A stretch of 64,000 nucleotides of DNA, taken from Candidatus Multivoradales bacterium. GTDB lineage: Bacteria > Acidobacteriota > Thermoanaerobaculia > Multivoradales > J023. A program made the position numbers and the translations under genes. Numbering within the stretch: the stretch's first letter is position 1; the number at the start of each line of letters is the position of its first letter. The notes beneath the pieces were generated by a model. It had not been told where the DNA came from. It made no database searches and saw only the letters and a list, made by a program, of their open reading frames with translations. The stretch spans positions 800,001 through 864,000 of the forward strand of contig CBDFLE010000006.1 in NCBI GenBank assembly GCA_965248925.1. Reading direction: 5' to 3'. Below are positions 44,024 to 63,400 of the stretch, piece by piece.

Positions 44024-45169
44024 TCACTCGGCGTCTCCTTCAAGCAAGGCGGCTCGGCGCTCCTCGAGCACGGCCCGCGTCCGCTCGATCTCGGCGATCA
44101 GCTCGGTCTCATCGGGCAAGGCCGTGCGGTACTCCGCGGCCATGACTTGGTTGGGCAGACCCTCCAGTGCGTAATGTGCCACGGCGGCATCTCGTTCGGC
44201 GCACAGGATCAAGCCCACCGGCGGGTTCTCGCCCGCGTGGGTCCAGTGCTGGCGGGCGTAGTTGAGATACAGGTGCATCTGCCCCGCGTCGGCGTGGGTG
44301 AAGGCCCCAATCTTTAGGTCGATGACCACCAGGCAGCGCAGCCGCCGGTGGAAGAAGATCAGGTCCACGCGATACCAGGCAGCGCCCACCCGCAGGCGCT
44401 TTTGGCGCCCGATGAAGCAGAAATCGCTGCCGAGTTCCAGCAGGAAGGTTTCCAAATGCTGGATCAGGGCGGCTTCGAGATCGCTCTCGGAGTACTCGTC
44501 CTTGAGGTCGAGAAACTCCAAGACGAAGGGATCCTTGATCGCCTCCTGCGGAGTGACGGCTTCCTCGGGCAGAGCTTTCTGCCCCTTCCCCAGCATGGTC
44601 GCCTTGTCCTTCGACAGAGCCGTGCGCTCGTAGAACTGAGAGTCGATCTGGCGTTTCAGTTGGCGCACCGACCAGCCGCCGCGCAGGGCCTCGGTTTCGT
44701 AGAAACGGCGAGCGTTTTCGTTCTTGACCGAGAGCAGGCGCACATAGGCAGACCAGGGCAGAACAAAGCGGGATTCCTTGCCTGTGGGAGCCAATTCCGC
44801 AGACGACGTCGGCAGAATGTTCCTGGGCCGGGATTCTGCAGACGGTGTCTGCGCAATCCCGCGCCCCTCGGCCTCCGGCCAGGCCAGATAAAAGGCCTTC
44901 ATGTGCCAGAGGTTGCGGACCGAGAAACCCCGCCCATAGCGCGCCGACAAATCGGCGGAGAGACGCTCGACCAGCTGGTCCCTATAGCCGGCACGCTCTT
45001 GCCCACTCTGGTCATGCTCGACAATCCGTTGGCCGATGAGCCAGTAGGCCGTGGTCATGACCGAGTTGACCGTGTGGGCCACCGAGTTTCTGGCCTCTTG
45101 GACAACTCTTGCGAGATCAGCCAGAATCGCCTCGTAGCCATCCTGCTTCGACACGGGTTGGTTCGTCAT
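44024..45169 (-). CDS. YhcG/DUF1016 PD-(D/E)XK nuclease-family protein
   Basis: YWLIG, GRGFS..NL, LPWSAY, KDPFVLEFL, DL.FFHR.L, GQMHLY and PVGLILC motifs. Confidence 0.92.
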   Translation of the reverse strand: MTNQPVSKQDGYEAILADLARVVQEARNSVAHTVNSVMTTAYWLIGQRIVEHDQSGQERAGYRDQLVERLSADLSARYGRGFSVRNLWHMKAFYLAWPEAEGRGIAQTPSAESRPRNILPTSSAELAPTGKESRFVLPWSAYVRLLSVKNENARRFYETEALRGGWSVRQLKRQIDSQFYERTALSKDKATMLGKGQKALPEEAVTPQEAIKDPFVLEFLDLKDEYSESDLEAALIQHLETFLLELGSDFCFIGRQKRLRVGAAWYRVDLIFFHRRLRCLVVIDLKIGAFTHADAGQMHLYLNYARQHWTHAGENPPVGLILCAERDAAVAHYALEGLPNQVMAAEYRTALPDETELIAEIERTRAVLEERRAALLEGDAE

Positions 45170-48100
45170 CCTCCGTCCCCGTAAGTCGATCGATCCTCGC
45201 AGACCTCCATCGGTTGGGTCATCGCATCCACTTTCAAGTAGTAGTGCTGCACCTTGCGGACCTCATGCCAGTCGTACTGAATAGGGTCCAGAATGGGCGT
45301 CTGCAAAGTGGGCTCAGTGGCACAGCTAGTGACGACGTAGAGCCAATAACAGTCGCGACGGTCCTCGGCCACACGCTTCTCGTTGGGCGACCAGAGGATG
45401 GTACCGGTGGCTGCGGCGAGGCCTTTGACCTCGATCAGGCGGATCTCGCCGGATCGCGTGTCGAGGCTGGTGATGTCGTAGCCAAGGTTCTTGGCGCTGA
45501 CGTCCTTCACTTGGCAGCCGCGGTCTCGCTCGTGCTCAATGACGACCGACATCGCGACAGCCTCGGTCTCGAGATTGGGGCGGAGATTCTTGACCTCGCT
45601 CGACTCGCGCTCAGGATGGGGCAAGACCAGCACGCAGGTGAGCCGCTCTACCGCCTGTAACGACAGCGCGCGCTGGCGTCCGAGCTCCTGGCGGCGACGC
45701 TCGCGGCGAGAGAGCAGCTCGGCGTGGCGATTCTCTGCCTTGACCAGACGGCCTTCGGCACCTTGTTTGCCTTCCTCCACCTCGCTAGCAGCGCGGCCAA
45801 TCTCATCGTCGGTGCGCTGCAGCAGCTCGGTGAGCGAGAGCTCGACGTGCTCAGCAATGCACTCGACCTCATTGAGACGCTCCGCTCGAGTCTCCTCGAG
45901 GAAAGGCGTCAGGGCGTTCTCTTGCAGCCAGTCAACGGGATCAGCGGCGGCGGCAATGGAGGGTAGCTCGGCAGGTGCTTCGGCGGGGCTGAAGTTGCCC
46001 AGCGCACTCGGCTCGCGGAGTTCTGGTTCGCCGTTGTCGCAGAGTTCCACGGCGAACAGGTTCTCATGCACGATCCGGCCCAGTCCGTCCACCACACGGG
46101 CGCGGTAGAAGTCGATGCGCGCCGGCTCGTCGTGGGAGAGTGAATGGAAACAGGCGCCGTGGGCGAAGGGTTCCATGGCGCACGCGCGGGTGTGGCGGCG
46201 GATCGACTCGAAGAGCGGGTGGCCGGGGGTGACCCACTCCAGATGGTGCTCGTCCGCGGTCTCGCGGTCGGTGGAGCAGCGGGGGTAGTGGTTGGCGAGC
46301 TCGGGGAGCTTCCAGTCCTCCTCGCGCTCGTAGCGGCGCAGAACGCCAGGCGTGCGGGACGGCTCGAAGGTGTGAGGCAAGCTCTCGATGGGTTTGAGAT
46401 TGAGCGGCACGAACTCGGCCGCCTCGCGGATGAAGCGGGCGATGCTCTCCGGCACCAGGCGGCGCTCCTGGGCACGGGCACGGCGCTCGACCAGCATCTC
46501 CAGGTTGAGCTTCTTGGCGGCGAGGCCCTCCAGGGCGCTTTGGCAGATGGCACGGAAGCGGCTTTCGTCCACGTCTTTCAGGAGCCGATCCTCGAGGTCC
46601 TCGTCGCCGAGCTTGCCTGCGTAATAGTCGCGCAGCACGCGCTCGACGTGGGATGCGGGCAGCACCTCGCCTACGACGTTGAAGACACTGTCGTCGTCCA
46701 GTGCGTCGCGGATCTCCTGCAGCTTGTCGAGCAGGCGCCGCAGGACCCTGCCCTCGATGGTGTTGGTAGCGACGAAGTTGAAGATCAGGCAATCCTCGAG
46801 CTGGCCGTAGCGATGGATGCGCCCCATGCGCTGCTCGAGGCGGTTTGGGTTCCAGGGGATGTCGTAGTTGAAGAGGATGTTGCAGCACTGCAGGTTGATG
46901 CCCTCGCCCGCGGCCTCGGTAGCGACCAGAACCTGGATCTCCCCTTCGCGGAACTGCTGCTCGGTGAAGATGCGCGTCCCAGGCTGGTCGCGCGAGCCGG
47001 GCTTCATACCTCCGTGGATGACGCCGACGCGGAAACCCCATGATTCCAGGTTCTCGACCAGGTAATACAGAGTGTCCTTGAACTCGGTGAAGAGCAGCAG
47101 GCGCCGGTCGGGATGGTCGAAGAAACCCTCGCTCTCGAGCAAGGCTCTCAACTTAACAAGCTTGGCCTCGGCGCCGCTCTGCTCGACGCCTTCGGCCTCT
47201 TCCGCCAGCTCACGTAGCTCGGCGATCTCCTGGTGAACCTGGTCGGCGTTACCTGCCAGGGTGACGGCCTCGAGTAGGCGTTCGAGCTGCTCGCGCTCGG
47301 CATCTTCCATCTCTTCGATCTCTTCCCAATCGGGCAAGTCCGGAGCAGCGGTGCTGGCAAGGCTCTGAGCCTCCTTCAACCCCTTGTCGAGCCGTTTGGC
47401 ACGGTTCTCGAGACTGCGCCGCATGGCGCGGGTGCTGGAGGCGAGGCGGCGCTGGTAGAGGGCCATCAGAAAGCCGACGGCCCGAGCGCGTGGGTCGTCA
47501 CTCTGGGCCGCGGCGCGGGCGCTCTGACGTTTCACGAAGCGGGTAATCTCGCGGTACAGCTCGAACTCTTCGCCATCGATGGTGAAGGCCACCGTGTGCG
47601 GGATGCGCCTGGTGAAGATCTTGCGGGCTTCCCAGGTTCCGTCGTCGCCTCGCTCGGGGAAGTAGACCATCGCCTCCTTGGTGCGGCGCAGGTAGAAGGG
47701 CGCGCGCTGGCGGCTCATGGCCTCGCGAATCGAGCGCACGTCGGCGTATGCATCTCGGTCGAGGAGCTGCAAGAAGAGGGTGAAATTGACCGGATCCCCC
47801 TTGTGGGGCGTGGCGGTGAGCAGCAGGTAGTGGTCGGATGTGTCGCGCAGCAGCTCGCCCAGCTTGTAGCGCAGGCTCTTATGCGTCGCGTCGCGGGCCG
47901 ACATGCGGTGGGCCTCGTCGACGATGACGAGATCCCAGTGGACCTGGCGTAGCCCGGGCAGGACGTCGTCTCGCTTGGCGAGGTCAAGGGAAGTGATGAC
48001 CTTCTTCTGCTCGATCCACAGGTTGACACCGAACTGATCGCGCAGGTCGCTGCCCTTGAGCACCAGGAACTTTTCGTCGAATTTCTCCTTGAGCTCGCGC

Positions 48101-48600
48101 TGCCACTGGAAGGCGAGGTTGGCGGGAGCGACGATGAGGATGCGCTCGGCGAGACCGCGCAGCTGCAGCTCGCGGATGAGGAGTCCCGCCATGATGGTCT
48201 TGCCTGCGCCCGCGTCATCGGCGAGCAGAAAGCGGACCCTGGCGAGCTTCAACAGATGGTCGTAAACAGCCTCGAGTTGGTGAGGAAGAGGATCGACCCT
48301 GGAAATCGACAGACCAAAGTAGGGGTCGAATTCCCAAGCAATTCCGAGGGCAAATGCCTGTAGGCCGAGACGCAGAAGCCTACCGTCGCCATCGTAGCCA
48401 AATCCCGGCTGGTAAATGGAAAGGGAGGCGAGATCCTCCGCTGTCAGCTTGACTTTGCGAAAAAGCTCAGTCCGGGTACCAACGAGGCCAGCCATCCAGG
48501 AACCATCGGCACACTCGCGCACGGTCTCTACTCGCATCGGTTCGCTGAATAGGGCCCCTTCGAGGATCTGGGATTCCTGGAGAAAGCAAGCAATACTCAT
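45166..48600 (-). CDS. SNF2-family helicase with C-terminal DUF3883 (NOV_C) nuclease
   Basis: LADDAGAGKT, DEAH, TATPH, EGINLQ, EQRMGRIHRYGQ; GYDI...IEVKG...SPNE. Confidence 0.92.
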   Translation of the reverse strand: MSIACFLQESQILEGALFSEPMRVETVRECADGSWMAGLVGTRTELFRKVKLTAEDLASLSIYQPGFGYDGDGRLLRLGLQAFALGIAWEFDPYFGLSISRVDPLPHQLEAVYDHLLKLARVRFLLADDAGAGKTIMAGLLIRELQLRGLAERILIVAPANLAFQWQRELKEKFDEKFLVLKGSDLRDQFGVNLWIEQKKVITSLDLAKRDDVLPGLRQVHWDLVIVDEAHRMSARDATHKSLRYKLGELLRDTSDHYLLLTATPHKGDPVNFTLFLQLLDRDAYADVRSIREAMSRQRAPFYLRRTKEAMVYFPERGDDGTWEARKIFTRRIPHTVAFTIDGEEFELYREITRFVKRQSARAAAQSDDPRARAVGFLMALYQRRLASSTRAMRRSLENRAKRLDKGLKEAQSLASTAAPDLPDWEEIEEMEDAEREQLERLLEAVTLAGNADQVHQEIAELRELAEEAEGVEQSGAEAKLVKLRALLESEGFFDHPDRRLLLFTEFKDTLYYLVENLESWGFRVGVIHGGMKPGSRDQPGTRIFTEQQFREGEIQVLVATEAAGEGINLQCCNILFNYDIPWNPNRLEQRMGRIHRYGQLEDCLIFNFVATNTIEGRVLRRLLDKLQEIRDALDDDSVFNVVGEVLPASHVERVLRDYYAGKLGDEDLEDRLLKDVDESRFRAICQSALEGLAAKKLNLEMLVERRARAQERRLVPESIARFIREAAEFVPLNLKPIESLPHTFEPSRTPGVLRRYEREEDWKLPELANHYPRCSTDRETADEHHLEWVTPGHPLFESIRRHTRACAMEPFAHGACFHSLSHDEPARIDFYRARVVDGLGRIVHENLFAVELCDNGEPELREPSALGNFSPAEAPAELPSIAAAADPVDWLQENALTPFLEETRAERLNEVECIAEHVELSLTELLQRTDDEIGRAASEVEEGKQGAEGRLVKAENRHAELLSRRERRRQELGRQRALSLQAVERLTCVLVLPHPERESSEVKNLRPNLETEAVAMSVVIEHERDRGCQVKDVSAKNLGYDITSLDTRSGEIRLIEVKGLAAATGTILWSPNEKRVAEDRRDCYWLYVVTSCATEPTLQTPILDPIQYDWHEVRKVQHYYLKVDAMTQPMEVCEDRSTYGDGG

Positions 48601-48786: not shown

Positions 48787-49419
48787 ATCGACGGCAAAAA
48801 GCACGAGCCGATGGAAATGCTGGTAATCGACACTCCCGAAGAGCACATCGGCGTGCTGACCCAGAAGCTCGGACCACGCAAAGGCAAGATGCTGAAAATG
48901 GCCAGCTATGGCTCGGGCCGAGTGCGGCTCGAATTCCGGGTACCATCGCGGGGCCTGATCGGCTTCCGCACCGAGTTCCTCACCGACACCCGCGGCACCG
49001 GCATCATGAACCACCGCTTCGACGGCTGGGAGCCCTGGCAGGGAGACATCCCCCACCGCTCCACCGGCTCGCTGGTCGCTGACCGCGCTGGCAAGACCAC
49101 CTCCTACGCGATCGAAAACCTCCAGCCCCGCGGCACCCTGCTGGTCGGTCCCACCACCGAAGTCTACGAAGGCATGATCGTCGGCGAGCACTCCCGTTCC
49201 AACGACCTCGATGTCAACATCACCAAAGAAAAGCGGCTGAGCAACATGCGCTCCTCCACTTCCGACATCTACGAACGCCTGGTCCCCCACCGCCGCTTAA
49301 GCCTCGAACAGGCCCTGGAGATGATCCGCCAAGACGAAGCGGTCGAGGTGACGCCGAAGAGCTTCCGCCTGCGCAAGAAGCTGCTGCGAGCGGTGGATCG
49401 CAAGCGCAAGAATCGCTAA
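48787..49419 (+). pseudogene. typA: Duplicated typA 3' fragment (repeat copy 2)
   Basis: Same as 28963-29594 but ends in TAA instead of TAG; lacks the G domain. Confidence 0.92.
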
Positions 49420-49497: not shown

Positions 49498-49704
49498 ATG
49501 GCGACGAACTTGGCTTTGGACGACACGCTGATTCAGGAGGCTGTTGAGGTAGGCCATCACCGGTCCAAGAAGGCAGCGGTCACCGCGGCGCTTGATGAGT
49601 ACGTCAAGAGCCGTCGACGGCTGGCCATTCTCGACTGGATGGGTCGCGTCGATTACTACGCCGACTACGATCACAAGCAGCTGCGCCGGGCCAGCTCAGA
49701 GTGA
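49498..49704 (+). CDS. vapB: VapB-family antitoxin
   Basis: MATNLALDDTLI...KKAAVTAAL RHH-like pattern; GAGGAGG RBS; overlaps the PIN gene. Confidence 0.88.
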   Translation: MATNLALDDTLIQEAVEVGHHRSKKAAVTAALDEYVKSRRRLAILDWMGRVDYYADYDHKQLRRASSE

Positions 49705-50117
49705 TTGTCCTAGTCGACACCACGATCTGGTCCCTGGCGCTTCGCCGGCGGCCTGGCGTTCTGGGGTCAGGCGAACGATTGCTGGTCGAGGAGTGGGTTC
49801 GGCTAGTGCGCTCTGGCGAGGCGGTTCTGATCGGCCCGATCCGCCAAGAGATCCTCTCGGGAATCCGCTCCCAGCGTAGCTTTGATGCGATACAAGAGAG
49901 CCTCGGCGATTTCAGATATGTCGAGATCCTAGCTACCGATTACGATCAGGCGGCCTGCTTTTTCAACCGTTGCCGCAGCCATGGCATTGCTGGCACAGCG
50001 GTCGATCTCCTGATCTGTGCCGTAGCTCACCGCGTCGACATCCCAGTCTTCACCACCGACGGCGACTTTCGCCGCTATGCACCGCATGTCGGGATCCGCT
50101 TGCACGGCTCGGCCTGA
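49701..50117 (+). CDS. vapC: VapC PIN-domain toxin
   Basis: VLVDTTIWS, QEILSG, DLLI and TTDGDF acidic PIN residues. Confidence 0.92.
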   Translation: MIVLVDTTIWSLALRRRPGVLGSGERLLVEEWVRLVRSGEAVLIGPIRQEILSGIRSQRSFDAIQESLGDFRYVEILATDYDQAACFFNRCRSHGIAGTAVDLLICAVAHRVDIPVFTTDGDFRRYAPHVGIRLHGSA

Positions 50118-50185
50118 TCTGTCTTTCGCTCCTGAGCCTGCGAAGGTCCTTGGGGGGCCCGAGGAGTCCAGAGAACTTCCCTCAT
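50118..50185 (-). pseudogene. Frameshifted, truncated RelE/ParE-like toxin start
   Basis: ATG overlaps the antitoxin stop: MREVLWTPRA, then (shifted frame) KDLRRL. Confidence 0.45.
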
Positions 50186-50436
50186 CACTCGAGGCCGAGC
50201 CGCCGCCTGGCCTCCTGGTGGGAGACGTGCAACCCACCCTTGGCCTGACGGCGAGCCTCTGTGAGGCCACCGTCAATGTCATCGTCATCAGACTCATCAT
50301 CGGCTGGAGCTGAACGCAGCGCGCGGAGAACCGGGTCCGTGGTAGTTCGAAGAGCCTCCGGGACGCGCTGCACCTTCGGCAGGTTGCCTTCCGGCAGATC
50401 GTCGGCGATTCGAAGAAGAACTTTTCGTGCAGTCAT
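50185..50436 (-). CDS. Small acidic antitoxin-like protein (83 aa)
   Basis: DDLPEG...DPVLRALRSAPADDE...G..VSHQE...LG pattern typical of RelE-associated antitoxins. Confidence 0.6.
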   Translation of the reverse strand: MTARKVLLRIADDLPEGNLPKVQRVPEALRTTTDPVLRALRSAPADDESDDDDIDGGLTEARRQAKGGLHVSHQEARRRLGLE

Positions 50437-50486: not shown

Positions 50487-53400
50487 TCAGTCCACTTCGA
50501 GGCGTAGCAGGTCGTTGGCCGCGACCGCCAGGCGACTGGCGATCTCTCCCACCCGAAGGGTGTACTCGCCCTCGGGCAGCCCGCCGATCACCAGCGGCAG
50601 CTCGGGACTCAACCAGGCTCCCACGCCGATGCGTTGGCGGAGAAGGGAGAGGTTCCAGCCGTCTGCAGAGATCAACTCCACCCAACCCTCCAGCTGCCGC
50701 GCTTCAAGCTTGACCGCTCCAGTCTCGCCAGACTCAAGATACAGCTGGCGAGTGCTGTCCAGATCCTCCCAGGCCCCTAGCACCCAACCACCATCGTCCA
50801 CCGCAGCCGCTCGCAAGCGCCGCGGATAGGGCGGCCGAAGCTCGACCCGAGCGACCCCAGCGGAGTCCAAGGTCAGGCGACGACTCTGGTGGTCGTCCCG
50901 CTCGAGAAAAACGAAAGCACCGGCAGCCGGCCCGCCATCTTGTCGGCCGACACGGATTTCCACCACTTCCCGGGCTTCTTCGGCCAGCACCAAGTACACC
51001 GGCTCACGGTCTTCGGGGGCCACCACCACGACTTCGCTACTGCGCGCTCCTGCAAGGGCGAAGAGCTGCTGGACGCCCATCTCAAGACCGGTCAGGGTGA
51101 AGGCTCCGGCAGCGTCGGTGCGCGCCACCGCGATACCCCCCACCGTCTGCACTCGCGCCCCAGGCACCGGCTGGTCGGCGCTATCCAGCACCACCCCCGC
51201 GATCCTGCGGCCAGGAAAATTCAACCGCACCGCATGCACAGCTACCGCCGGCAGCTCGACCCTCTGCGGGGCGCTGACCGCCCCGGATTCGAGCCATAGC
51301 ACGCTCCAGGTACCAGGCCGCAGACCCTCGCTGAAGAACTCTCCCGCGCCGTCGAGACTCACCTCCACCTGCGGCCGGCCAGCGCCGTAAATCTGCTGCG
51401 ACCGCGCTCCGAGCGCCGACCGGCGATGATTGATCAGCCCATGTACCGCGGTGTCCTCAGCACTCTGCCACAGCAGCCTGCCGCCGCTGGCGGGCTCGCC
51501 CCCGACGGTCACCGAGCCGGACACCCGCAGGGGCGATTGCTGACAATCTACCTCGCTCAATCCGGCCTCGGGGACCTCGACCTGCTGCTCGCAGAGCAGT
51601 TTGCGATCGAGCAAGACCGAGATGTTGGCCAGCCCCGGCGGCACATGCAGAAACTCAGCCTGGCCATCGACCACGGTGGCCGACAGCATGTCCATCTCCA
51701 TCCACCGGCGCCGCAGATCTAGACGCACGGTCGCACCATTGGCGACATCCTCGGCAAAGACCAGCACCCTGCTGCCGGCCTGCAAGTAGATCTCTCCCAG
51801 ATCAAGCAGCGACTCTTCGGTGTCGACCGTCAGGTGGCGACGGGCCAGGCCTGGAGCGTCGATGCGTAGCAGGGTTGGCTGCCGCGGCAGGCCGGTGAAC
51901 TCGAACTCACCCGTGGCGCCGCTCTGCGCCTGCAGCAGATCCCCCTGAGCCCAGGCGACCAGCGCCCCCTGCTCCCCCAAGCGCGGCGCCCACACCCTGG
52001 CGCCAGTGATCGCCGAGCCGTCAGTTTGGCGCAACAGCCGGCCCCGAACTTCGACGCCCTGCGGCGCCAGCAAGTCACCGAGGTCGCGAAGCTCCCCGCG
52101 GCGGCCGGATTGCAGGTGAACCGCCAGCTCGCGGGTTCTCAAGGAGCGCAACAGCAGGCGGCTCGGCAGGCCGGGCTGCAAGTCGAGTTCGAAACGCCCA
52201 TCAGATTGCAAATCGTAATCTTGATAGTGATGGCCATGCTCCACCCGCACGCTGCCGGCAGCGACCGCCACCCCCTCTGCATCCAGCAATCTGCCGGTGA
52301 CTCCAAAAGCCCGTTGCAACACCACCACCGGCGGCTCTTTGGGAAAGGGCGGCTGCACGGTGGGGCTGGCTGCGAGATGGCCGGCGGCGCTGACCTCCAG
52401 ACGCAGGGGCTCGCTGGCGGAGACTCCGGCGAGCCGCGCCTGGCCGGCGGCGTCAGTGGTGGCCGTACGTCCGCCCCCAGCGCTGAGGGCCGCGCCCGCC
52501 ACCGCCCGGCCCCTATCGTCGCGCACGATCAGCACCAGCGTTGCAGCGGATTGCAGCGTCACCTCGCCCAGGTCGGCGCTGCCCGCCGCCAGGTCGAGAC
52601 GAGTCTGGAAGGGCGCGAAGCCATCGCGGTGAGCCAACAGTCCGGCTTCACCAGCGGGCAAGCCGGCCAAGGACCAGGCCCCCGAGGGATCGCTGGTAGT
52701 CCCCCGTCCGGCCAAGGCAGCATCGCCCGCCAGCCACACCTCTGCCTTGACCTCCACCCCCTCCAGGCCCTCACCCGCCGGGTCTAGAAATCGGCCGCGG
52801 ACCGTGGCTCCGACTGGCAGCTGGACCCTCGGTGGTAAGGCTACCACCCGGCCGTCCCACGCCACCGAGGCGTGCTGCCGCTCACTGAGGATCAACTTCA
52901 GCGAGGCATGGTCCGGCAACGCTTGCAGCTCGACCGCACCCCCGGGCCCGGCGACCCACTGCGCCCACACTCCGCCACCCTTGCCAGTGCTGGCAACCGC
53001 CAATGCGGTCACCGCCGAGCTGGCCAACGGCTGGCGATCCGCACCGACAATCTGAAGGAAGTGATTTTCAGCCACCTCCGCCACGAGCACCGCCCGCTGT
53101 TGCCTCGGCCGTACATCCAGCCACCAAGATCCCTGATCCTCGCCCACCAGCCGCAGTCGCCAGGGGCGACCGTCACGAGGCAAACGAAGCACCGAACGAC
53201 CGCCCAATTGCCAGGCCGGCAACAGCGCTTCCGGCACCTGCTGCCACATCTCCAGCGGCGCCGCTCGCAGACTCAGCGCCGCCTCACCCTGCTGCGCCCC
53301 ACGGACCCGTACTTCCAGGGTCTGCGCCGCCGGGGCAGTCTCCCAAGCAGCCAGCTCTGCCGGCGCCAAGCGCACCGGCGGCGAGGCCTCGCTCCACAGC

Positions 53401-53567
53401 CAGACTTGCTCGAGCCCCGCCGGCAACTCACTCGGCAAGGTGTCGACCGCTTCAAAACGACCCTGCGAGAACACCAGGACCGCCGCCGCTTGCAGATCGC
53501 TGCAAGGGAGCAAGAACAAAGTCAAAGCCAAGGCGATGGGAAAGGTTACTTTGACAGATCCGTTCAT
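50487..53567 (-). CDS. Large secreted protein with repeated carboxypeptidase-regulatory-like (Ig-like) domains
   Basis: Signal peptide; repeated V.G.V.D..G.PV.GA.V...TD..G.F.L.GL modules; ATG overlaps the upstream stop. Confidence 0.85.
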   Translation of the reverse strand: MNGSVKVTFPIALALTLFLLPCSDLQAAAVLVFSQGRFEAVDTLPSELPAGLEQVWLWSEASPPVRLAPAELAAWETAPAAQTLEVRVRGAQQGEAALSLRAAPLEMWQQVPEALLPAWQLGGRSVLRLPRDGRPWRLRLVGEDQGSWWLDVRPRQQRAVLVAEVAENHFLQIVGADRQPLASSAVTALAVASTGKGGGVWAQWVAGPGGAVELQALPDHASLKLILSERQHASVAWDGRVVALPPRVQLPVGATVRGRFLDPAGEGLEGVEVKAEVWLAGDAALAGRGTTSDPSGAWSLAGLPAGEAGLLAHRDGFAPFQTRLDLAAGSADLGEVTLQSAATLVLIVRDDRGRAVAGAALSAGGGRTATTDAAGQARLAGVSASEPLRLEVSAAGHLAASPTVQPPFPKEPPVVVLQRAFGVTGRLLDAEGVAVAAGSVRVEHGHHYQDYDLQSDGRFELDLQPGLPSRLLLRSLRTRELAVHLQSGRRGELRDLGDLLAPQGVEVRGRLLRQTDGSAITGARVWAPRLGEQGALVAWAQGDLLQAQSGATGEFEFTGLPRQPTLLRIDAPGLARRHLTVDTEESLLDLGEIYLQAGSRVLVFAEDVANGATVRLDLRRRWMEMDMLSATVVDGQAEFLHVPPGLANISVLLDRKLLCEQQVEVPEAGLSEVDCQQSPLRVSGSVTVGGEPASGGRLLWQSAEDTAVHGLINHRRSALGARSQQIYGAGRPQVEVSLDGAGEFFSEGLRPGTWSVLWLESGAVSAPQRVELPAVAVHAVRLNFPGRRIAGVVLDSADQPVPGARVQTVGGIAVARTDAAGAFTLTGLEMGVQQLFALAGARSSEVVVVAPEDREPVYLVLAEEAREVVEIRVGRQDGGPAAGAFVFLERDDHQSRRLTLDSAGVARVELRPPYPRRLRAAAVDDGGWVLGAWEDLDSTRQLYLESGETGAVKLEARQLEGWVELISADGWNLSLLRQRIGVGAWLSPELPLVIGGLPEGEYTLRVGEIASRLAVAANDLLRLEVD

Positions 53568-54649
53568 AGCAGGAACTCCGCAAACACCAGCTTCGAGGGC
53601 GTGGCTTTAGTCTTATGAGGCAAGGTGGCACCACTTTGGTAGAGCAGAAATACCGCTTCCTTGCCTCTGAGATCGGCATGCAAATGCCCATGGTCGGAAG
53701 GAAAAGTCAGTGGCAGATCGAGCCACAGCGGTGGCTTACCGCGGTAGAGCACCACCAGCCGCCAAGACACCACCCCGGCGCCTGAGACCCGGCGAGTGAT
53801 CAGGCCGATCTCGCCACCGACCGGCAAGATCTCATCAACGATCTCAAATTGGTTGATCCAAGCACGACGGGCGAGCACGTCTCGCGACAGGAGGTCCCTC
53901 TTCTCTTCCGAGTGGTCGCAGCGCATGCCAATACCCAAGGGCTCGGTCTCCCAGGTGTAGACCTGCTTGGCGGATGCGTCGAGCAGAAAGACATCAGGTT
54001 CCGCGCCGGGCACCAGCACCAGGGAGCCATCGGCGAGGAAACGCAAGACTCCCAGCTCACTGACACGGCAGAAATCAAAGGCCCGTGCGCCAGGGCCGGT
54101 CTGCGAAAATTGAATTGGGCGAAACTCGACCGACTCTCGCCCCAGCCTGGCCAGCCAGCCGATGCCGCCAGTGGGTGCCAGCTGGCGGTCGTCATCACGG
54201 CGGATACCCAGCACTGCCAGCCGATCTCCGAACAGGGCGATGTCCTCAACAAACTCGAAGTACTGCTTATCCGCCAACCCCTCAGCCTGACCGTGACGCC
54301 GCCAACCGACCTCGTAGATCAAAGAGGCTACCCCCAAGTAGCTGTCAGAACGGGCCAGGAGACTGGTCATGACCACCTCCCCTGATCCGTGCCCAGTACG
54401 GCTGAGAATCCTCGGCGCCGCCTCGTCAAGAGAATAGTTCACTGCCCCAAACGGAGAGACTGCGAGAAAAACCGCCTTTCCCTCAGCCCAGCGGACATCC
54501 TGTGCCGCTGCAATATCGCCTCTGAGTAGCAACTCCGACTGGACTTTGACCTCCAGGCTTTGGAGGACGGTCGGGGCCAGCATTAGAGCCGAGAACTGAA
54601 CGAACGCCAGGACTGCCCGCCAGCACTCGCGTATACCGAGGATTCCCAC
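53564..54649 (-). CDS. Secreted hypothetical protein, probable beta-propeller
   Basis: Signal-like N-terminus; short beta-strand-rich segments (DVRW, DIALFGDRLAVLG, LRFLADGSLVLVPG). Confidence 0.7.
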   Translation of the reverse strand: MGILGIRECWRAVLAFVQFSALMLAPTVLQSLEVKVQSELLLRGDIAAAQDVRWAEGKAVFLAVSPFGAVNYSLDEAAPRILSRTGHGSGEVVMTSLLARSDSYLGVASLIYEVGWRRHGQAEGLADKQYFEFVEDIALFGDRLAVLGIRRDDDRQLAPTGGIGWLARLGRESVEFRPIQFSQTGPGARAFDFCRVSELGVLRFLADGSLVLVPGAEPDVFLLDASAKQVYTWETEPLGIGMRCDHSEEKRDLLSRDVLARRAWINQFEIVDEILPVGGEIGLITRRVSGAGVVSWRLVVLYRGKPPLWLDLPLTFPSDHGHLHADLRGKEAVFLLYQSGATLPHKTKATPSKLVFAEFLL

Positions 54650-54661
54650 CTTCAGCCCCCG

Positions 54662-54883
54662 TCAGGGCCTGCAGCTAGATCCGTTGGTGACGCAGTAGCC
54701 GCCGGTCTTGTTCTCGACACACTCCGTACAGCCGCCACCACTGCCCCCGCACCAGTAACTACCTCCAGCGCTCACGATCCCGGAGTTGGAATAAGTCTCA
54801 CAGCCAGCGCCTTCAAGGGTCAGGGCTCCAGTCACCAAGATCACCGCGGACAGTCCGGATAGAAGTACTTTTCTTGCGCGCAT
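54662..54883 (-). CDS. Small secreted Gly/Cys-rich peptide (6 Cys)
   Basis: GGAGG RBS, Sec-type signal, mature part GCETY...WCGGSGGGCTECV...YCVTNGSSCRP. Confidence 0.8.
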   Translation of the reverse strand: MRARKVLLSGLSAVILVTGALTLEGAGCETYSNSGIVSAGGSYWCGGSGGGCTECVENKTGGYCVTNGSSCRP

Positions 54884-55450
54884 AATCCAGCCTCCAAAAC
54901 AAAAGAGTTTTCTGCTTAGTGTTTCTCAAACAGGGCCAAGGAACGACAAGAGGCGGGCAAGGCGGCGCACGGCATTCGGGCAGGAGCGGACGAGTATTAT
55001 TTCGCAAGCTGCCTCCAACAACAATAGAGAGTCCAGCGTGGCTGCTCAAGGACCGACAAAAACCATTTGGTAACAAGAGAGCCGGACCAAGCGCCACTCG
55101 GCCCCCTCCTTGCCGAGGGCAGCCAGCACTTCTTGCATGCGCCGATCAAAAACTCTCAAAAAACGATTGCAACGTACCACAAGCGGCAGAGAGAGTCCAG
55201 GCCGGATCCGTGGCAGCGGAGGCAGCGCCGGGGTGGTGCCACTCATTTCTCGCCGATCAGCCGCCCGCACCCGATGCAGCGGTTGAGTCCATCCCTAATC
55301 GAGGCGTGCTCGCCGTCATTCAGCGCGCCAGACAGGCGCCCATAGTAGTTGCTCATCGCCGAAACGCAGCCGGCGGTCCGTCCCAGCCGCTCGGCGATGA
55401 GCCTGTCCGGTGCCGTACTGCCAAGGAGGTGCCAGTCATTTCATCGGCCG

Positions 55451-56638
55451 TCATTTCTTCGGGGCATGCTCGCCGCCATCAGGACGCCACAGAGGCACCT
55501 CATAGTAGTGGCGCATCGTCCTGATGTTGCCGACTGGCCGTCCCAGCCGCTCGGCGATGACCCGGTCCGGTGCCGTACCGAGCAGGGCGATCTCCTCGGG
55601 CTTCCACTTGCGCTGCTGACGCACGGCCGGAATCCCCATGGCGGACCGTATTGCGCCAACCCTTGTCTTCGACAAACCGACATCCTGGGCGATCTCTTTG
55701 TCGGTATCGCGGCCGAGCCGAGCCACCAGCTGAGGCGTCCAGCGCAGCTCCGGCTCGGAAGCCGCTGTGATGCCCTGCTCTGCTCGAAGTTTGGCGATGG
55801 TGGGCCTCGACAGACCGGTACGTGCGCGAACCTCTTTGCTCGGCAGCCCGAGCAACGCGTTCAGCTCGGGAGTTCTCACCACGGACAGCTTGGCATGCGG
55901 CTTGGCAGCGATGCCGAGTTCCTGGCGTTTCTTGCCAGCGCTCGCTGGCGACATGCCGTGCCGGTGCGCGATCGCGGTATCGCTCTCCTTGCCGAGCCGC
56001 TCGGTCATCTCGTCGCTCCAGACGATCGGTGGCCCCTTGGGGTTGTGTGCCTCGATGCCGAATTGCTGACGCTTGATGGTTACCGACGACGCGGCGATCC
56101 CAAATCGCTTGGCCGCCGCCCGATCTGTCATCGTGCCGAGCAGAGCCTTTCGTTTCTCTGTCCAACGAAAGCGGTTGGGGGATGAGTGCGGCGGAGGGTT
56201 GCAAGCAGCGATGCCAAGCACAATCCGCTTGCGAGTGACCGTCTCTTTGCACACGCCGAGCTGCTCAGCGACAGCGCGGTCACTGTCGGCTCCCAAGCTG
56301 GCGATCATCTCGTCGGTCCACACCACGTCAGGGCGCCGTGGGCGAAAGGCGGATATCCCGCGTCGAATCCGCTCGCGACGGACCTTGGTGCCGCTGATCC
56401 CGAATTTTTTGCCGAGCGTCTCGTCAGGGGCCTCGCCGAGCAGAGCAACCAGCCGCGCGGGACAACGAAACCGCTTCCTGGCAATTGGCTGGCGCTCGAT
56501 CTCCACCCGCCTGGCGGGCGCCGGCGGCCGGTCTTGCGCCGGCTGTTCGCGCATCCGTAGGAGGCCCTCGGTGAGGGAACGATGGCGCCCTGGTTCTGTG
56601 CGGCGGCGTGCTCTCGGAGGTGTGGAGGACTTGGACAT
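55451..56638 (-). CDS. Protein of 7 tandem ~46-aa HTH-like repeats
   Basis: Consensus WT.E..A.LG...D..IA..LG.....V...R...GI; start uncertain. Confidence 0.8.
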   Translation of the reverse strand: MSKSSTPPRARRRTEPGRHRSLTEGLLRMREQPAQDRPPAPARRVEIERQPIARKRFRCPARLVALLGEAPDETLGKKFGISGTKVRRERIRRGISAFRPRRPDVVWTDEMIASLGADSDRAVAEQLGVCKETVTRKRIVLGIAACNPPPHSSPNRFRWTEKRKALLGTMTDRAAAKRFGIAASSVTIKRQQFGIEAHNPKGPPIVWSDEMTERLGKESDTAIAHRHGMSPASAGKKRQELGIAAKPHAKLSVVRTPELNALLGLPSKEVRARTGLSRPTIAKLRAEQGITAASEPELRWTPQLVARLGRDTDKEIAQDVGLSKTRVGAIRSAMGIPAVRQQRKWKPEEIALLGTAPDRVIAERLGRPVGNIRTMRHYYEVPLWRPDGGEHAPKK

Positions 56639-56842
56639 CGTGGCAATCCGAAGGAGAGTAGAGAGAGAGGGTGACAAGTCACTTCTCGGCTAGCTACGGG
56701 GAGAGTCTATCGCTTCATCCTGAAGTGCAGGCGGATCCGATCACGGCGACAGATCACCAGACTCGAAATCGTCAGCAAAGACCTCTTCACGGCTCGACAA
56801 AGACGCGCGAGAGCGCGGCCCTCAGCGTAAACTGGCCGCGAC

Positions 56843-57820: not shown

Positions 57821-58582
57821 CTAGCTCGGAAGATAAGCCCGCATCTGCCCACTATCCACTAGGCTCAACCATTGCTCCGCCAACCGCCTGGCGAAGGTCT
57901 GATCTTCGATCAGCACCCCTACTTCGAGGTTGCGGTAGAGGCCGCGGTCGGTGAAGTTGGCGGAGCTGACCAGCACCCAGCGATGGTCGACGACGGCGCA
58001 TTTGGCATGCAGGCTGGCAAGGGCGCCGGGGGCGATGGTGCGGGGGTCGTAGTAGAGCGCCGGGCGGGGCAGGCCGAAGGGCCAGTTGTCGGCGTAGAAG
58101 CGTTCGCAGGCCTGGCTGGCGTGGCGTTGGGGATCGCTACCTCGGGGGGCACGTTCGATATCGAGGAAGAAAGTGGCCTCGACCCCTCTCTCGACCATCA
58201 CCCGATGCAGCGGCCGCAACAGCTCGGCGCCGTGGTCGAAGCGGTAGCCGCCGACCAACACCTGCTGCTCGGCCTTGCTGAACAGCTCGCGCACCACCAC
58301 CGCGCTGTCGCGGGCCGGGCGCAGACCGGCTTCAGGGCCGGTCCACACCAGCTCGAGGTGGGAGCTGGGGTGATGGCGGCGTTCGGCAATCACCGCCTCG
58401 AGGGCCGGCAAGGCCTGTTCCGCGGCGAGAGCCTCGAGGGGACCCAGGCGATCGGCCAGCTGGGCCAGGCCCAGGGTGGTCAGCGAGGCGGCGTCGAGTT
58501 GGCGGATCTTGCCGTGCCGCAGGGCTCGCCGCAGCAGCTCGAGGTCGGCGGTGGCGACACCGGTCAGACCGAGATCAGGCAC
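57821..58582 (-). CDS. drmC: DISARM phospholipase D-family nuclease DrmC
   Basis: LVWTGP, HAKCAVVD (HxKxxxxD), SANFT, NLEVG; downstream of drmB. Confidence 0.9.
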   Translation of the reverse strand: MPDLGLTGVATADLELLRRALRHGKIRQLDAASLTTLGLAQLADRLGPLEALAAEQALPALEAVIAERRHHPSSHLELVWTGPEAGLRPARDSAVVVRELFSKAEQQVLVGGYRFDHGAELLRPLHRVMVERGVEATFFLDIERAPRGSDPQRHASQACERFYADNWPFGLPRPALYYDPRTIAPGALASLHAKCAVVDHRWVLVSSANFTDRGLYRNLEVGVLIEDQTFARRLAEQWLSLVDSGQMRAYLPS

Positions 58583-60431
58583 CTAGGTCGGCCACCGAGA
58601 AGTAGGCCAGGTCGGCAGCCTGGCCCAGGGTGGGCACCAGCAGAGCGCGGTCGAGGAAGCGGTTGAAGCGCTCGCAGGAGGGCTCGGCGATGAACAGGCA
58701 GCCGTGGCAGGCAGCCCCTTCAAGGAAGCGTTCGGCGTAGTCGCCATCGGGGGAGTGGCTACCGCAGACCGGGTCGTTGGCGCACAGCGAGCCCAGGTCG
58801 AGCGCCCGCCTGAGGTGCTGGACAATCCGCCGGCCTTCCTCGACCAATCCTCCCAGAGTGCCCTCGGTGCCAGCCGAACCGGTCGACAGCAAGACCCCGG
58901 CCATCGGCCGCTCGCCGTCGTGAGCGGCGCAGTAGATGCGCTCGCGGATCGCCGCCGAGGGGTAGCCGCAGCGCAGTGAGATGGCGTTGATCAGCAGGTG
59001 GGAGAGGGAGTGCAGCAGGTAGAAACGGACGCCGGGATAGACTAGGTGGGAATCCGTGAGACCCCTGCTCCAGGCGGCAAAGCCGGCTTGCAGCTGGCGA
59101 TCTCGCTCGATCACCGCCGGCCGCTGCTCCCAGGCGTACAAGCGCTCCTCATCGAGCTCGATCAGCACCCCCTCGCCGCGGATCTCGCTAGCCGGCAGCC
59201 AGTCGGTGCTCAGGCCGAGGCGCTGGGATTGCACGCCGAGGTCGAACTCGCCTTCGAGGTCAGGGGTCACCGGCTCCAGGCGGGTGAACCCCACCTGCAC
59301 CCGCACCTCGCGCAGCTTGGGCGCCAGCACCAGGCTGGCAAGCCCTTCCGGCAAGCCCGCCGCAGGTAGAAAGCGACGGGCGAAGAAGTCCACTCCGGGA
59401 GGCGGCAACTCGCCGGGACGCTCATCGGGCTGGGCGCGGAAATGCTCGATCTCGGCGCTGCGCAAGGCCAGGCGTGGCATCGCCTCGCCACGACGAATGG
59501 CGGCAATGGTGGCCAGCACCTCCTGATCGGAACCAGCGACCGCCGCCCTGACCTTGGGCACCCTGCGCAAGGCCGGCAGATCCTCGGCGGTGGCCTCGGA
59601 CAGCACGTCCCACACCCCGCGGACCCGCTCTTCCAGCTGCCGCGCCGGATCGGGGATCGACAGGGCGCTGACGATCTGGGCAAAGTAGGCATTCGAGGCG
59701 CTGCGCACCAACAGTCGCTGGCGTTGATCGCAGGTCTCACGCCCCTCGACGCCGAGCCACGGACGGTGGCCGGGGCAGGGCAAGGCGAGATCGTGGATCA
59801 TTGCTCGCGACAGCCGCTGGCCGGCGCTGCAAGCGTCACAGACCACCCGGATCTCCGAGAAGTCGCCGGTGACGCCTTCGAGCAGCCGCAGCCGGGGCGC
59901 GGAACAGTGAGTCTTGGACTCGAGATGAGCGAAGCGGATCCAGGGAAAGTCTTGCAGGTGGCCATCGCTACAGGCGCTGAGGAAGCGCACCGGCACGGTC
60001 TCCGACGGCTTGTCCCGGCCGCAGTCGTGGACGTAGCGCTGGCGCTTCAGCAGCAGGGCATGCTTGCCGACCAGGGCGCGACAGCGGGGATTCTGGCAGA
60101 CGAACCAATTCGGCAGCTGCAAGGCCTGGACGCCATTCCACCGACCCGGCTCGCCATCGAGGCAGGCCGGCGGCAGGCGAAAGGGCTGATCTTCCGCCAA
60201 GTGGATCGGCGGCTCAATCTGGGCCAGGCGCTCCACCAGCTTGTCGCGCAGCCGGGGCTCGGCGACCGTCGGCAGAGGGCGATTGCCAGCATAGCTCCAG
60301 AAGTCCAAGCCACCGACCACCACCGCGTGGTCGAGCAGGTCCACCAACGAGCCAGGGCCATAGGTGCCGACCATCTGGCTACGGCGGATCTCGCCCTGGG
60401 GTGGCTCGCTGCGGCGCCGTCGGCGGCTCAT
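58575..60431 (-). CDS. drmB: DISARM DUF1998 protein DrmB
   Basis: IRRSQ...GPGSLVD, GEG, HSLSHLL, GTLGGL, C.NDPVC, ACHGC...E.SC. Confidence 0.92.
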   Translation of the reverse strand: MSRRRRRSEPPQGEIRRSQMVGTYGPGSLVDLLDHAVVVGGLDFWSYAGNRPLPTVAEPRLRDKLVERLAQIEPPIHLAEDQPFRLPPACLDGEPGRWNGVQALQLPNWFVCQNPRCRALVGKHALLLKRQRYVHDCGRDKPSETVPVRFLSACSDGHLQDFPWIRFAHLESKTHCSAPRLRLLEGVTGDFSEIRVVCDACSAGQRLSRAMIHDLALPCPGHRPWLGVEGRETCDQRQRLLVRSASNAYFAQIVSALSIPDPARQLEERVRGVWDVLSEATAEDLPALRRVPKVRAAVAGSDQEVLATIAAIRRGEAMPRLALRSAEIEHFRAQPDERPGELPPPGVDFFARRFLPAAGLPEGLASLVLAPKLREVRVQVGFTRLEPVTPDLEGEFDLGVQSQRLGLSTDWLPASEIRGEGVLIELDEERLYAWEQRPAVIERDRQLQAGFAAWSRGLTDSHLVYPGVRFYLLHSLSHLLINAISLRCGYPSAAIRERIYCAAHDGERPMAGVLLSTGSAGTEGTLGGLVEEGRRIVQHLRRALDLGSLCANDPVCGSHSPDGDYAERFLEGAACHGCLFIAEPSCERFNRFLDRALLVPTLGQAADLAYFSVADLGA

Positions 60432-63400
60432 CGCCCACCCCCGCCGAGGGGCTGGCGCTCCAGCCACAGGTGGACGGTGGGCTCGACATCGCGCATCGAA
60501 GTCGGCGCCGCGAAGCGAGCCTCCTCAGGGCCGCGATCGGCCGCCGTCTCGTCGAGGACGGTGAAGAGCAGCGGCGGTCCGCCGGAACGGTCGAGATCAA
60601 AGGGGGAGTAGCGCCGGCCACCGGCGGCGCCGCGCGCCTGCTCCATCACCAGCTGCCAGCTGTCGAGCAGCGCCTTGCCGATCTGCTCCAAGTCCCCGGT
60701 CCGCTGGCGCAGCGCCGCCTGGTCGAGGGAGCGGTGGCGACTGGCCCGCTCCACCAGCACCGCCACCGCCGCTTCGCCGAGCTGGCGGTGATCTTCGAGC
60801 TTCGTAACCGCCGGCCCGGGGGTCATCAGCGGATCGAGATGCCTCACCAGGGCAACCAGCGCGCCGGCCAGGCCGCGCTCCAGCGCCGGGCCGGAGAAGG
60901 GGGTCAGGCTCGACGCCTCGACATTGCGGTAGAAGCTCTCGTGGTAGGCGGTGAAGTGCTCGTAGTGGGAGCGATCGCGGGGCCGGTAGACGTTGAAGCA
61001 AGTCACCACCAACCCCGGTCTATCCTCCGGTTGGCGGCCCACCCGGCTCGACGCCTGGATGTACTCCGCGGTGGTCTTGGGCTGGCCCGCCACCACCATC
61101 AGGCCGAGGCGGCTGATGTCCACCCCCACCGAGATCATATTCGAGGCCAGCAGCACATCGACGTGATCGCGCTCGGCGTGGCCCCGGTCGAGCCGCGCCT
61201 TGGCCTCGGCGATGCGGCCGGTCGCCTCGCGGCTGGTCAGCTCTACCGGCTCGGCGGCCAGCCGGCGATCGCGCCACCAGCACCGCGGATCGGCGCCCTC
61301 GGGATGGCGACCGGTCTGCCGCCGGCAGCGCGACACCACCTCGTCTTCCACCAGCCGGCGCATGCCGCCGAGCTCGCGCAAGCTATTGAAATAGCCCACC
61401 AGAGTCATGTAGGCGTCGGCGGTGCTGTCACCACCGCGCTCCTGCCACAGCCGCTGGGCGGCGGTCAGCAAGATCACGTAGGTGCGCAGCAGCAGAGCCT
61501 TCATCGGCCGCCCAGGCGCCGCCAGACCGATGTAGAGCCGGCCCGGACTCTGGCGATCGACGGTAGCGAAGAAGGTCTCGCCGTCGTCGATCCCCGGCGG
61601 CGGAAAGATCGCCGGCGGCGCGGTGCGGCCAAACAGCGCCCGCACCTGCTCGGTGGCCTGGCGGACGGTGGCGGTAGCGGCGATCACCTTCGGCAAATAG
61701 GAAGAGCCCTCGCCGTCGCTGCTCCGGCAGAGAGCCTCGACGACGGTCTCGTAAAGCCCCACCATGGTGCCCAGGGGACCCGAGATCAGGTGCAGCTCGT
61801 CTTGCACAATCAGCTCCGGCGGCCGCAGGCCCTCCGGTAGCTGTCGGGCGTCGCGGGGCGGCTGATCGAGGGGGCCGTAGAACAAGCGTCCGTGTCGCCA
61901 GCTGGCGCGGCCGAAGAGCAGACCGGTTTCGCCACGCCAAGGCAGCATCGCCAGCTTGTCGACCGTAGCCACCAGGAAGCAGGGCAGCTCGCGGTAGATC
62001 TGCTCGTCGACAAAGAGCACCGGCAGGCCCTCGGGGCTCTCGTCGACATGGAAGGGGCAGTCGTCGGCACCGCAGTGGACGTGTACCTCGGTGGGCTGCT
62101 GCTGCGGATGCACGCGCAAGCTGCCCGGTTCGAAAGGGGTCTTGCACCAGGGGCATTCACTGAGCGGGAAGGGCGAGCTGGCGGTGCGACCCCGGCTGTT
62201 CTTGTAGGCAGTGATCTGCCGCGCCACTTCCTTGATGGTGTTGGCCGTGGCGCTCCTGCCCACCCACAGGCCGATCGCAAAACGGGTCTGGCCGAGGCGC
62301 GCTGGCTGCTCGCGGCGCAGCAGCTCGAGGGCACAGATCAAGGTAGCGGCGCGGCCCAACTGATCGAGGGTTAGCAGGCGCAGGGTGTAGCGCAGCAAGA
62401 TGGCGACCCCATCGCCACCGTCGAGACGCCCAGTACCGCGCAGGCGGCGCAACAGCAGAGTGACGGCAATTACCCCCAGATAGGCTTCGGTCTTGCCACC
62501 ACCGGTGGGGAAATAGATCAGCTCCACCCGCTGGCGGTCGGGGTGGGCAGGGTCGGCGATCGAGGGCAGATTGAGCAGCAGGAAGGCGAGCTGGAAGAGG
62601 CGCCACTCAGGCACCATGCCGGGGCGGGCCGATCGCGCCTGCAGTGCCATCGCCCGGTTCATCCAGCCAAAGGCCAGGCGCGCCTCGGCATCGCCGGCCA
62701 GCAGCTCGATCCCCTGGCGAACACGCTGCGAGGCGCGCTGGGCGTCGGCCATCAGCTGATCACGGGTTCGGCGGCGGTTATCGCTGCCCGGATCGACTGT
62801 CGCCTGCTCGGCGATCCAGCTCTCGTAGGCCGCCGGCAGCGCTTCCAAGCCACGGCGCAAAGCCTCGGGATCGTCCAGCTCGGCGAGTTCCTCCATGCCG
62901 ATGGTCAGTCCCTGCACCTGGACCGACTGCACCCGCCGGACCTCAGCGCGGGGGATCCAGGTGGTGCGCACCCGCCGCACCGGCTGACCCGCTGGCACCT
63001 CCGGCACCGCCACCGCCACACCGTGGCCGACAGCGACCTCAGTGCAGTGGCGGAACTGCAAATCGGCGATCAACTCGTCGGCATCCTCGGCGCTCTCGCC
63101 GCGCCAATTGGGCCGCGGTACGAACCCGTCGCCACACTCCAGCTCGAGGCTGACCTGGAACATGTAGCGCTCGTCGGCACGCCCCTGCTCCCCTTTGCCG
63201 CGGCGGTTGACCACGAAGAGGGACAGGGCCCGCGTGCCGGCAGCCAGACCCGGCGCCGCGGCGACCTCCAGCCGCCCTTGCAACCAGACACCGGCCGCCT
63301 CGGGCAGCTCGATACCGCGCGCCAACTGCGGCCGATCGAGGGGCAGGTCGAGGCTCAGCGGCAGCCGCGGCTGGCGACGCCAGAAACGCCGCTGGCGGCT

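Follow-up and report, generated by a model that had tools for sequence, protein, structure and literature searches.

A conserved secreted cassette of Acidobacteriota linking a small disulfide-rich protein, a six-bladed propeller and a giant tandem transthyretin-like protein

Gene organization of the trio

The stretch of DNA analysed here (hereafter, the window) comprises 64,000 nucleotides (nt) from the genome of a Candidatus Multivoradales bacterium (Acidobacteriota, Thermoanaerobaculia; assembly GCA_965248925.1, contig CBDFLE010000006.1, positions 800,001 to 864,000) and carries on its minus strand three adjacent genes that encode, respectively, a small disulfide-rich protein (the peptide), a beta-propeller and a giant repeat protein. 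This trio stands on its own as a secreted cassette, vertically conserved in Acidobacteriota within the order and class to which the window belongs, and is held together by two conserved linkages, one between the propeller and the small disulfide-rich protein and the other between the propeller and the giant, a protein of ~1000 amino acids (aa) made of tandem transthyretin-like (TTR) domains. Its components, identified as open reading frames (ORFs) except for the first, which was read from the sequence, are:

54891..54895, minus strand: Shine-Dalgarno-like GGAGG, 7 nt before the ATG of the peptide gene
54662..54883, minus strand: small Cys-rich peptide gene, precursor of 73 aa, ATG start
53564..54649, minus strand: propeller gene (middle gene), 361 aa, GTG start
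50487..53567, minus strand: giant gene, 1026 aa

An earlier examination of this DNA, made without database searches (the sequence-only reading), had described a tight operon of three genes for proteins with signal-like N-termini, and both traits were recovered here. The stop codon of the peptide gene lies 12 nt before the GTG of the propeller gene, and the propeller gene shares 4 nt (ATGA) with the start of the giant gene, an arrangement that amounts to translational coupling. The gene-caller version of the propeller (P0001, 339 aa) starts at an internal ATG (M23), which would open a 78-nt gap and remove the signal-like segment; we prefer the GTG start because the homologues possess N-terminal hydrophobic segments. 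The signal peptides of all three products were recognised by eye on the basis of a positive n-region, a run of hydrophobic residues and small residues at the cleavage site, and the AlphaFold2 (AF2) models have low confidence at the N-termini of the propeller (residues 1-30) and the giant (residues 1-25). A scan for promoters and terminators at the locus yielded nothing above shuffled expectation. The three ORFs are more than chance occurrences, since all of them, including the Cys framework of the small one, are conserved in other genomes.

Fold and family of the three proteins

The AF2 model of the propeller, built from a 110-row alignment, has a mean pLDDT of 93.1 and a pTM of 0.89 and shows a six-bladed NHL-like beta-propeller over residues ~31-361, preceded by the signal-like residues 1-30, so that the 'propeller-like' label of the sequence-only reading can be replaced by a definite fold. 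In a structural search with VIA-align, run all against representative structures, the best match was the NHL domain of Brat (1q7f_A; Z 21.2, root-mean-square deviation (rmsd) 3.5, 253 of 279 residues aligned), followed by other NHL domains with Z between 20.2 and 20.6 (among them 7qrv_A, Z 20.6, and 8suc_A, Z 20.4). Further matches, at Z ~17-20, include peptidyl-hydroxyglycine lyase (PAL), lactonases, the PknD sensor, teneurin NHL domains and YWTD domains of the low-density lipoprotein (LDL) receptor type; Foldseek returned generic propellers. At the sequence level, the window propeller matches no Pfam family at E<=1 and no NCBIfam family, 109 of the 110 family members scanned have no Pfam match at E<=0.01 (PF01436 was found in none of the 110), and the best hit of its profile against the sequences of solved structures has an E-value of 0.08. 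A model that is clearly NHL-like in the absence of any match to a sequence family indicates that the sequence family is new and its fold a known one. Members retain a DVRW motif, two near-invariant Cys (C194 and C244) and a set of invariant or near-invariant charged residues (D51, R53, R203, R286 and D326), and no invariant His or metal-ligand triad was found among the 110 members. The model has no transmembrane segment after the signal peptide. One family member (P0009) is a tandem double propeller.

The giant protein matches the Pfam family PF13620 (CarboxypepD_reg) in four stretches (E 1.1e-41; 141.5 bits against a cut-off of 32.3) as well as PF13715 (CarbopepD_reg_2; E 6.9e-15). Its AF2 model, based on a 13-row alignment, is all-beta (pLDDT 81.4, pTM 0.61). 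A fold search with the whole model gave only generic multi-sandwich matches (TM 0.05-0.10), and single domains of ~80 residues superpose on solved structures with rmsd 1.4-2.2, namely the NTE domain of SusC (9hfj, Z 12.7), the TTR domain of carboxypeptidase D (5aq0_B, Z 11.7) and that of teneurin-2 (Z 11.6). The sequence-only reading had called this protein a giant multi-Ig protein; its multi-domain beta-sandwich nature stands, but because single domains match TTR folds the protein is better described as ~11 tandem transthyretin-like sandwiches of the CarboxypepD_reg kind. The N-terminal region (residues ~28-160) is family-specific, rich in Trp and the best conserved part of the protein, and is followed by ~10 further sandwich domains; relatives are conserved end to end, with two invariant Cys (C659 and C675). 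Protease traps of the alpha-2-macroglobulin type have a thioester domain and a series of macroglobulin domains; for the giant, the comparison gave a sub-threshold match to MG4 (E 0.072; 13.8 bits, the cut-off being 24.7), a model with no helical domain, only two invariant Cys, and alpha-2-macroglobulin chains only among the generic sandwich matches with TM below 0.1. In one genus (loci L031-L036), an additional segment with four Cys is present in the N-terminal 100 residues of the giants, the propellers have long inserts (430-530 aa in all), and there are one to three paralogous propeller-giant pairs per genome.

The small protein has a signal-like N-terminus (residues ~1-26) and a mature part of ~47 aa, 40% of which are Gly and Ser, with six Cys in the pattern C28-x16-C45-x6-C52-x2-C55-x8-C64-x6-C71, exactly as first described. 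Its homologues share this Cys framework and adjoin propeller genes. The core of the family can be written as C-x2-Y-x-N-S ... C-x6-C-x2-C, closer relatives having C-x2-Y-x-[ND]-S ahead of a C-x(5-7)-C-x2-C core; the C-x2-C is invariant across the small proteins, and there is no conserved Trp. Many mature members of the family are 90-140 aa long, and each locus has one copy. All 18 small proteins examined are acidic or neutral: the net charge ranges from -17 to 0 (-1 for the window peptide) and 0 of 18 are cationic. Identity between loci is 32-67% for the peptide core (32-52% for alignments of 19 residues or more, with the value of 67% coming from a pair with only 12 aligned residues), compared with 27-52% for the propellers and 31-55% for the giants, so that the peptide is not hypervariable. 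The peptide matches no Pfam or NCBIfam family, its relatives in protein databases are named only 'hypothetical protein', and a sequence search of its profile against solved structures found nothing at E<=10. Two further ideas about the peptide were rejected. It is not a candidate lipoprotein, since the residues before the first Cys in three homologues (GAG, SGG and EAE) do not form a lipobox; nor is it a plausible substrate for amidation by a PAL-like propeller, its C-termini being neither conserved nor Gly-ending.

Conservation of the gene neighbourhood

A word-indexed search retrieved only eight relatives of the propeller, the window's own included, and an exhaustive profile search of a library of 1.84 billion proteins found 464 representatives at E<=1e-3, 287 of them at E<=1e-30. 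Within the phylum, the propeller is present in 14 of 401 sampled genomes (that of the window counted); among the others, 12 belong to the same order and one to the same class, and in a single genus it occurs in 9 of 9 genomes with one to three copies each. Records with a descriptive title are metagenome-assembled genomes of Acidobacteriota or Thermoanaerobaculia. We compared 21 genome loci other than the window, namely L002-L004, L026-L036 (in 16-kb spans) and seven seen with flanks of 1.5 kb (L013, L015-L018, L022 and L024); L025, a duplicate of L004, was left out.

A giant gene adjoins the propeller gene in 18 of these 21 loci, although in L002 only the first 76 residues of the giant fit on the contig and were identified by eye. 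The two proteins are even joined in a natural fusion of 1342 aa (P0071), in which the propeller lies ahead of the giant. The sequence-only reading had proposed to look for small Cys-rich ORFs beside the homologues of the propeller, and such genes are indeed there. A signal-bearing small ORF with the C-x(5-7)-C-x2-C core adjoins the propeller in eight of the 21 genome loci (L003, L004, L026, L027, L031, L032, L033 and L013), and L029 and L030 have at the same position a small secreted protein with four Cys, that of L029 matching the hidden Markov model (HMM) of the peptide weakly (E 0.0018). Metagenomes contributed 14 more loci, of which 12 were counted, L049 and L050 being set aside for having a match of 82 residues only. 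A small ORF lies beside the propeller in ten of the 12 (L037-L039 and L041-L047), eight of these ORFs matching the peptide HMM with E-values from 3.8e-8 to 0.0051; the set is partly redundant, as L037 and L038 are identical and L041 and L044 nearly so. No small ORF was seen beside the propeller in the remaining two (L040 and L048), both with short flanks.

The complete trio occurs in three gene orders: peptide-propeller-giant in the window, L031, L032, L033 and L013; propeller-peptide-giant in L003 and L004; and giant-peptide-propeller in L037/L038. In an all-against-all comparison of the ORFs of 14 loci we found no other gene common to them, the remaining clusters being alternative-frame shadows of the propeller and giant genes. 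No enzyme or transporter co-occurs with the propeller across these 14 loci, which extends to the relatives what had been remarked for the window, namely the absence of modification enzymes and of a transporter.

A few loci show peculiarities of their own. In L027, the small Cys-rich gene that follows the propeller (8625-9258, plus strand) seems to be frameshifted, with the signal-like segment and the Cys-rich part in different frames. Both L027 and L026, which come from the same genome, lack the giant, and in L026 another secreted ORF of ~235 aa without Pfam match takes its place. L028 encodes two tandem secreted proteins of 90 aa with 10-11 Cys each (3774-4340, minus strand) that belong to a different family and are located ~3 kb downstream of a propeller gene beside which neither a giant nor the usual small protein is encoded; the ORF at 3774-4046 has no Pfam match.

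Comparison with known modules and with enzymes

The module kinds found in the trio have well-known counterparts. The propeller has, over model residues ~31-361, the same fold as the NHL propellers of Brat, TRIM2/TRIM71, PknD and teneurin (for PknD, 1rwi_B, Z 19.3; for teneurins and a teneurin-like protein, Z 17.6-19.1; Brat and 7qrv_A as above), but it has only 8-13% identity to its structural matches, gives no match to an NHL-repeat profile and is a stand-alone secreted protein. Likewise, the giant resembles tandem CarboxypepD_reg or TTR repeat proteins such as NOMO-type rods and the NTE of SusC by its two Pfam matches and its domain Z-scores (11-12.7), and Atlas neighbours of its N-terminal part, which provide a lead only, carry CarboxypepD_reg and NOMO1-like domains. 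It differs from these proteins in having no TonB-dependent barrel, catalytic domain or anchor, and in possessing the Trp-rich N-terminal region and the linkage with a propeller gene.

The same three kinds of module come together outside the cell in the YWTD-EGF pairs of the LDL receptor (LDLR; EGF, epidermal growth factor) and in teneurins. LDLR, LRP and nidogen propellers match the trio propeller at Z ~17, and a teneurin TTR domain is among the best matches of the giant. We regard this as an architectural analogy and do not claim homology: in the trio each of the three modules is a polypeptide of its own, a YD shell, FN-plug and toxin domain are all absent, and the Cys spacing of the peptide presumably differs from that of EGF. 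Teneurin-like proteins of bacteria that contain beta-sandwich repeats together with TTR and NHL domains are described in a review (PMC6425310).

A second analogy, already suggested by the sequence-only reading, concerns Bacteroidota. The window propeller has among its Atlas feature neighbours clusters with DUF5128 and NHL (scores 0.90-0.91), again a lead only. In Bacteroidota, genes for six-bladed propellers of the DUF5128 or TolB-like kinds have neighbouring genes for small peptides, so that there, too, a small secreted protein stands beside a six-bladed propeller. The analogy fails at the level of families, since PF17170 and PF15869 are unmatched (by the window propeller at E<=1 and by the 110 members at E<=0.01) and no sequence relationship links the peptide families.

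Many six-bladed propellers are hydrolases, lyases or oxidoreductases, and in methylamine dehydrogenase and quinohemoprotein amine dehydrogenase a periplasmic propeller subunit is paired with a small Cys-rich subunit. The trio propeller could by the same logic be an enzyme, with the small Cys-rich protein as its subunit, CxxC redox partner or substrate and the giant as a tether. Its fold neighbours include peptidyl-hydroxyglycine lyase (3fw0, Z 19.8), the lactonases 8djf (Z 19.4) and 3dr2, strictosidine synthase, phytase and the Trx-NHL protein NHLRC2 (Z 18.0-18.1). The conserved charged residues of the propeller and the invariant C-x2-C of the small proteins would also fit such a function. However, a common fold does not mean a common function, and we consider this explanation, the main rival of the one favoured below, unlikely: the 110 members share no invariant His or metal-ligand triad, the propeller matches no enzyme family by sequence, and no maturation genes are conserved nearby. 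The two dehydrogenases are in addition distinguished by a seven-bladed propeller, a conserved Trp in the small subunit and accessory maturation genes, whereas the trio propeller is six-bladed according to its best fold matches, its small partners have no conserved Trp and accessory genes are absent. As far as these comparisons reach, the likenesses to YWTD-EGF proteins and teneurins, to the dehydrogenases and to the Bacteroidota pairs are thus architectural, and none of them places the trio within the corresponding family.

The defence island around the trio

Pfam and PADLOC scans show that this region of the window is a defence island, with DrmA, DrmB and DrmC on one side of the trio region and an HmaA/DrmD-type helicase on the other. 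The genes concerned are:

60428-63805, minus strand: DrmA (PADLOC E 1.4e-256)
58575-60467, minus strand: DrmB (PADLOC E 1.2e-75)
57821-58582, minus strand: DrmC, PLD-family (PADLOC E 4.9e-62)
45166-48600, minus strand: HmaA/DrmD-like SNF2 helicase with NOV_C domain
44024-45169, minus strand: PDC-S02 / YhcG nuclease
42285-44027, minus strand: DUF1156 adenine methylase, N-part
38548-39810, minus strand: DUF1156 adenine methylase, C-part
37080-38507, minus strand: GmrSD_N-domain protein (Pfam E 6e-27; PADLOC HEC-05)

The DUF1156 methylase appears to be split by a Transposase_29 ORF (39807-42200). The ~9 kb between the DISARM-type genes and the SNF2 helicase block contain the trio, an NmrA-like gene, a gene with helix-turn-helix (HTH) repeats, VapBC and a typA fragment. 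The latter is a 202-aa ORF (48811-49419, plus strand) in which EFG_C and BipA_C, the domains of the C-terminal third of TypA/BipA, are the only ones left; it directly adjoins the helicase gene at its start and could be a remnant marking the boundary of the island. Just upstream of the trio, a protein of 408 aa (55451-56677, minus strand) consists of about eight tandem HTH-like repeats of ~45 aa, as judged by eye; its sole Pfam match is HTH_23, it has no PADLOC match, and it is not kept beside the trio in other genomes. Downstream of the giant, at a distance of 50 nt and on the same strand, an 83-aa acidic ORF (50185-50436, minus strand) without Pfam match is convergent with VapC (49701-50117).

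The location of a gene in a defence island is no evidence of a role in defence, and the placement of the trio is probably incidental. None of its three proteins matches a PADLOC family (DISARM included), no defence gene is common to the loci of the relatives, and the trio has no conserved placement beside defence genes. The relatives are placed among unrelated genes, identified by eye: esterase-like and RNase E-like ORFs in L003, PadR-like and decarboxylase-like ORFs in L004, and a pseudouridine synthase-like ORF among other housekeeping neighbours. The 'variable defence region' of the sequence-only reading is therefore an accurate description of the window genome but not of the other loci, and the immunity function proposed with it finds no echo there.

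The same setting bears on the idea of a secreted defensin-like toxin or bacteriocin, a part that would fall to the small protein, while the propeller and the giant would serve as immunity factor, receptor or delivery scaffold. In favour of it are the small size, secretion and disulfide-richness of the peptide and, in this genome, the location of its gene between DISARM-type and helicase-methylase genes, beside VapBC. Yet, whereas defensin-like peptides are cationic, none of the 18 small proteins has a positive charge; the peptide core is not hypervariable, and each locus has a single copy. In contrast with bacteriocin clusters and those of ribosomally synthesised and post-translationally modified peptides, there is no modification enzyme, leader protease or dedicated exporter in the window, and none is conserved across the 14 loci compared. 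The relatives stand beside housekeeping genes such as the RNase E-like and pseudouridine synthase-like ORFs just mentioned, and the family, instead of being patchy, is restricted to a single order or class. All this makes a toxin system very unlikely. Less probable still is a diffusible signal or pheromone sensed by the propeller as extracellular receptor: the conserved pairing of peptide and propeller and the binding of ligands by NHL and YWTD propellers in other proteins speak for it, but the neighbourhood contains no conserved kinase, regulator or membrane transducer, the signal peptide of the propeller is not followed by a transmembrane segment, and mature small proteins of 90-140 aa are large for a pheromone.

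Proposed function of the cassette

The interpretation that we tentatively favour is that the products of the trio may form a complex outside the cytoplasm with a binding or scaffold function. That the three act together is suggested mainly by their neighbourhood, which has been retained through rearrangement, gene fusion and paralogue expansion. The three mature proteins would meet outside the cytoplasm, in the periplasm or at the cell surface, and assemble into one complex in which the chain of sandwiches of the giant may act as a rod or scaffold. The propeller may dock on the conserved N-terminal region of the giant, as suggested by the fusion P0071, which joins exactly these ends, and the acidic, disulfide-rich small protein would be attached to the propeller as an accessory subunit. 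For this last interaction, gene linkage is what points to it; a complex prediction with propeller residues 30-361 (110 rows) and peptide residues 27-73 (6 rows) scored 0.05 and 0.02, well below the mark of 0.32, but is no evidence either way, the fold of the partner itself being uncertain. The likeliest role of such a complex would be the capture or binding of an external ligand (a polymer, a surface or a metal) or a part in envelope architecture, functions that we favour because NHL propellers, TTR sandwiches and small Cys modules typify extracellular recognition proteins; killing, signalling and phage defence are less likely.

Several observations weigh against a binding or scaffold complex of all three proteins. 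L026, L027 and L028 have no giant, so the trio is not obligatory. In 11 of the 21 genome loci the surroundings covered contain no small Cys-rich gene; nine of the 11 are additional paralogues from a single genus, in genomes that have a peptide-bearing copy as well, six of the nine having been viewed with a 1.5-kb flank only. HMM support is weak for the small ORFs of the metagenome loci L045 (E 0.13) and L046 (E 0.28), which for this reason are assigned by motif and position. The genomes compared are kin and not independent, nine of the 13 others with a match coming from one genus. Moreover, no membrane anchor, lipobox, sorting signal or ligand was identified for the trio, and the invariant charged residues D51, R53, R203 and R286 of the propeller could equally mark the active site of an enzyme.

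A more specific possibility, which we hold to be somewhat improbable, is that the small protein, as an obligate subunit, forms a cap or plug on the propeller, the pair being carried on the TTR rod, or that the trio is a heteromeric periplasmic enzyme with a reactive CxxC in its small subunit. If the capping arrangement were true, the trio would be a bacterial, multi-polypeptide counterpart of the eukaryotic ectodomains that combine a propeller, a Cys module and a TTR domain in the style of the LDL receptor or teneurins, and either version would add an Acidobacteriota-specific envelope complex of a new kind, along with two protein families that are likewise new.

No described system or family fits the trio, in keeping with the first impression of an undescribed extracytoplasmic module, which does not in itself demonstrate a new mechanism. 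Among the matches listed in a literature search on propeller, Cys-rich peptide and CarboxypepD_reg modules, none gives an account of it. The cassette joins two families that have no curated model, the small Cys-rich proteins and the propellers, to a large repeat protein, and a linkage that has survived shuffling of the gene order, paralogue expansion and one fusion is strong genomic evidence of joint function. Acidobacteriota are abundant but poorly characterised bacteria of soils and sediments; knowing the role of this module would assign a function to several hundred 'hypothetical' proteins and could reveal a new type of envelope complex.

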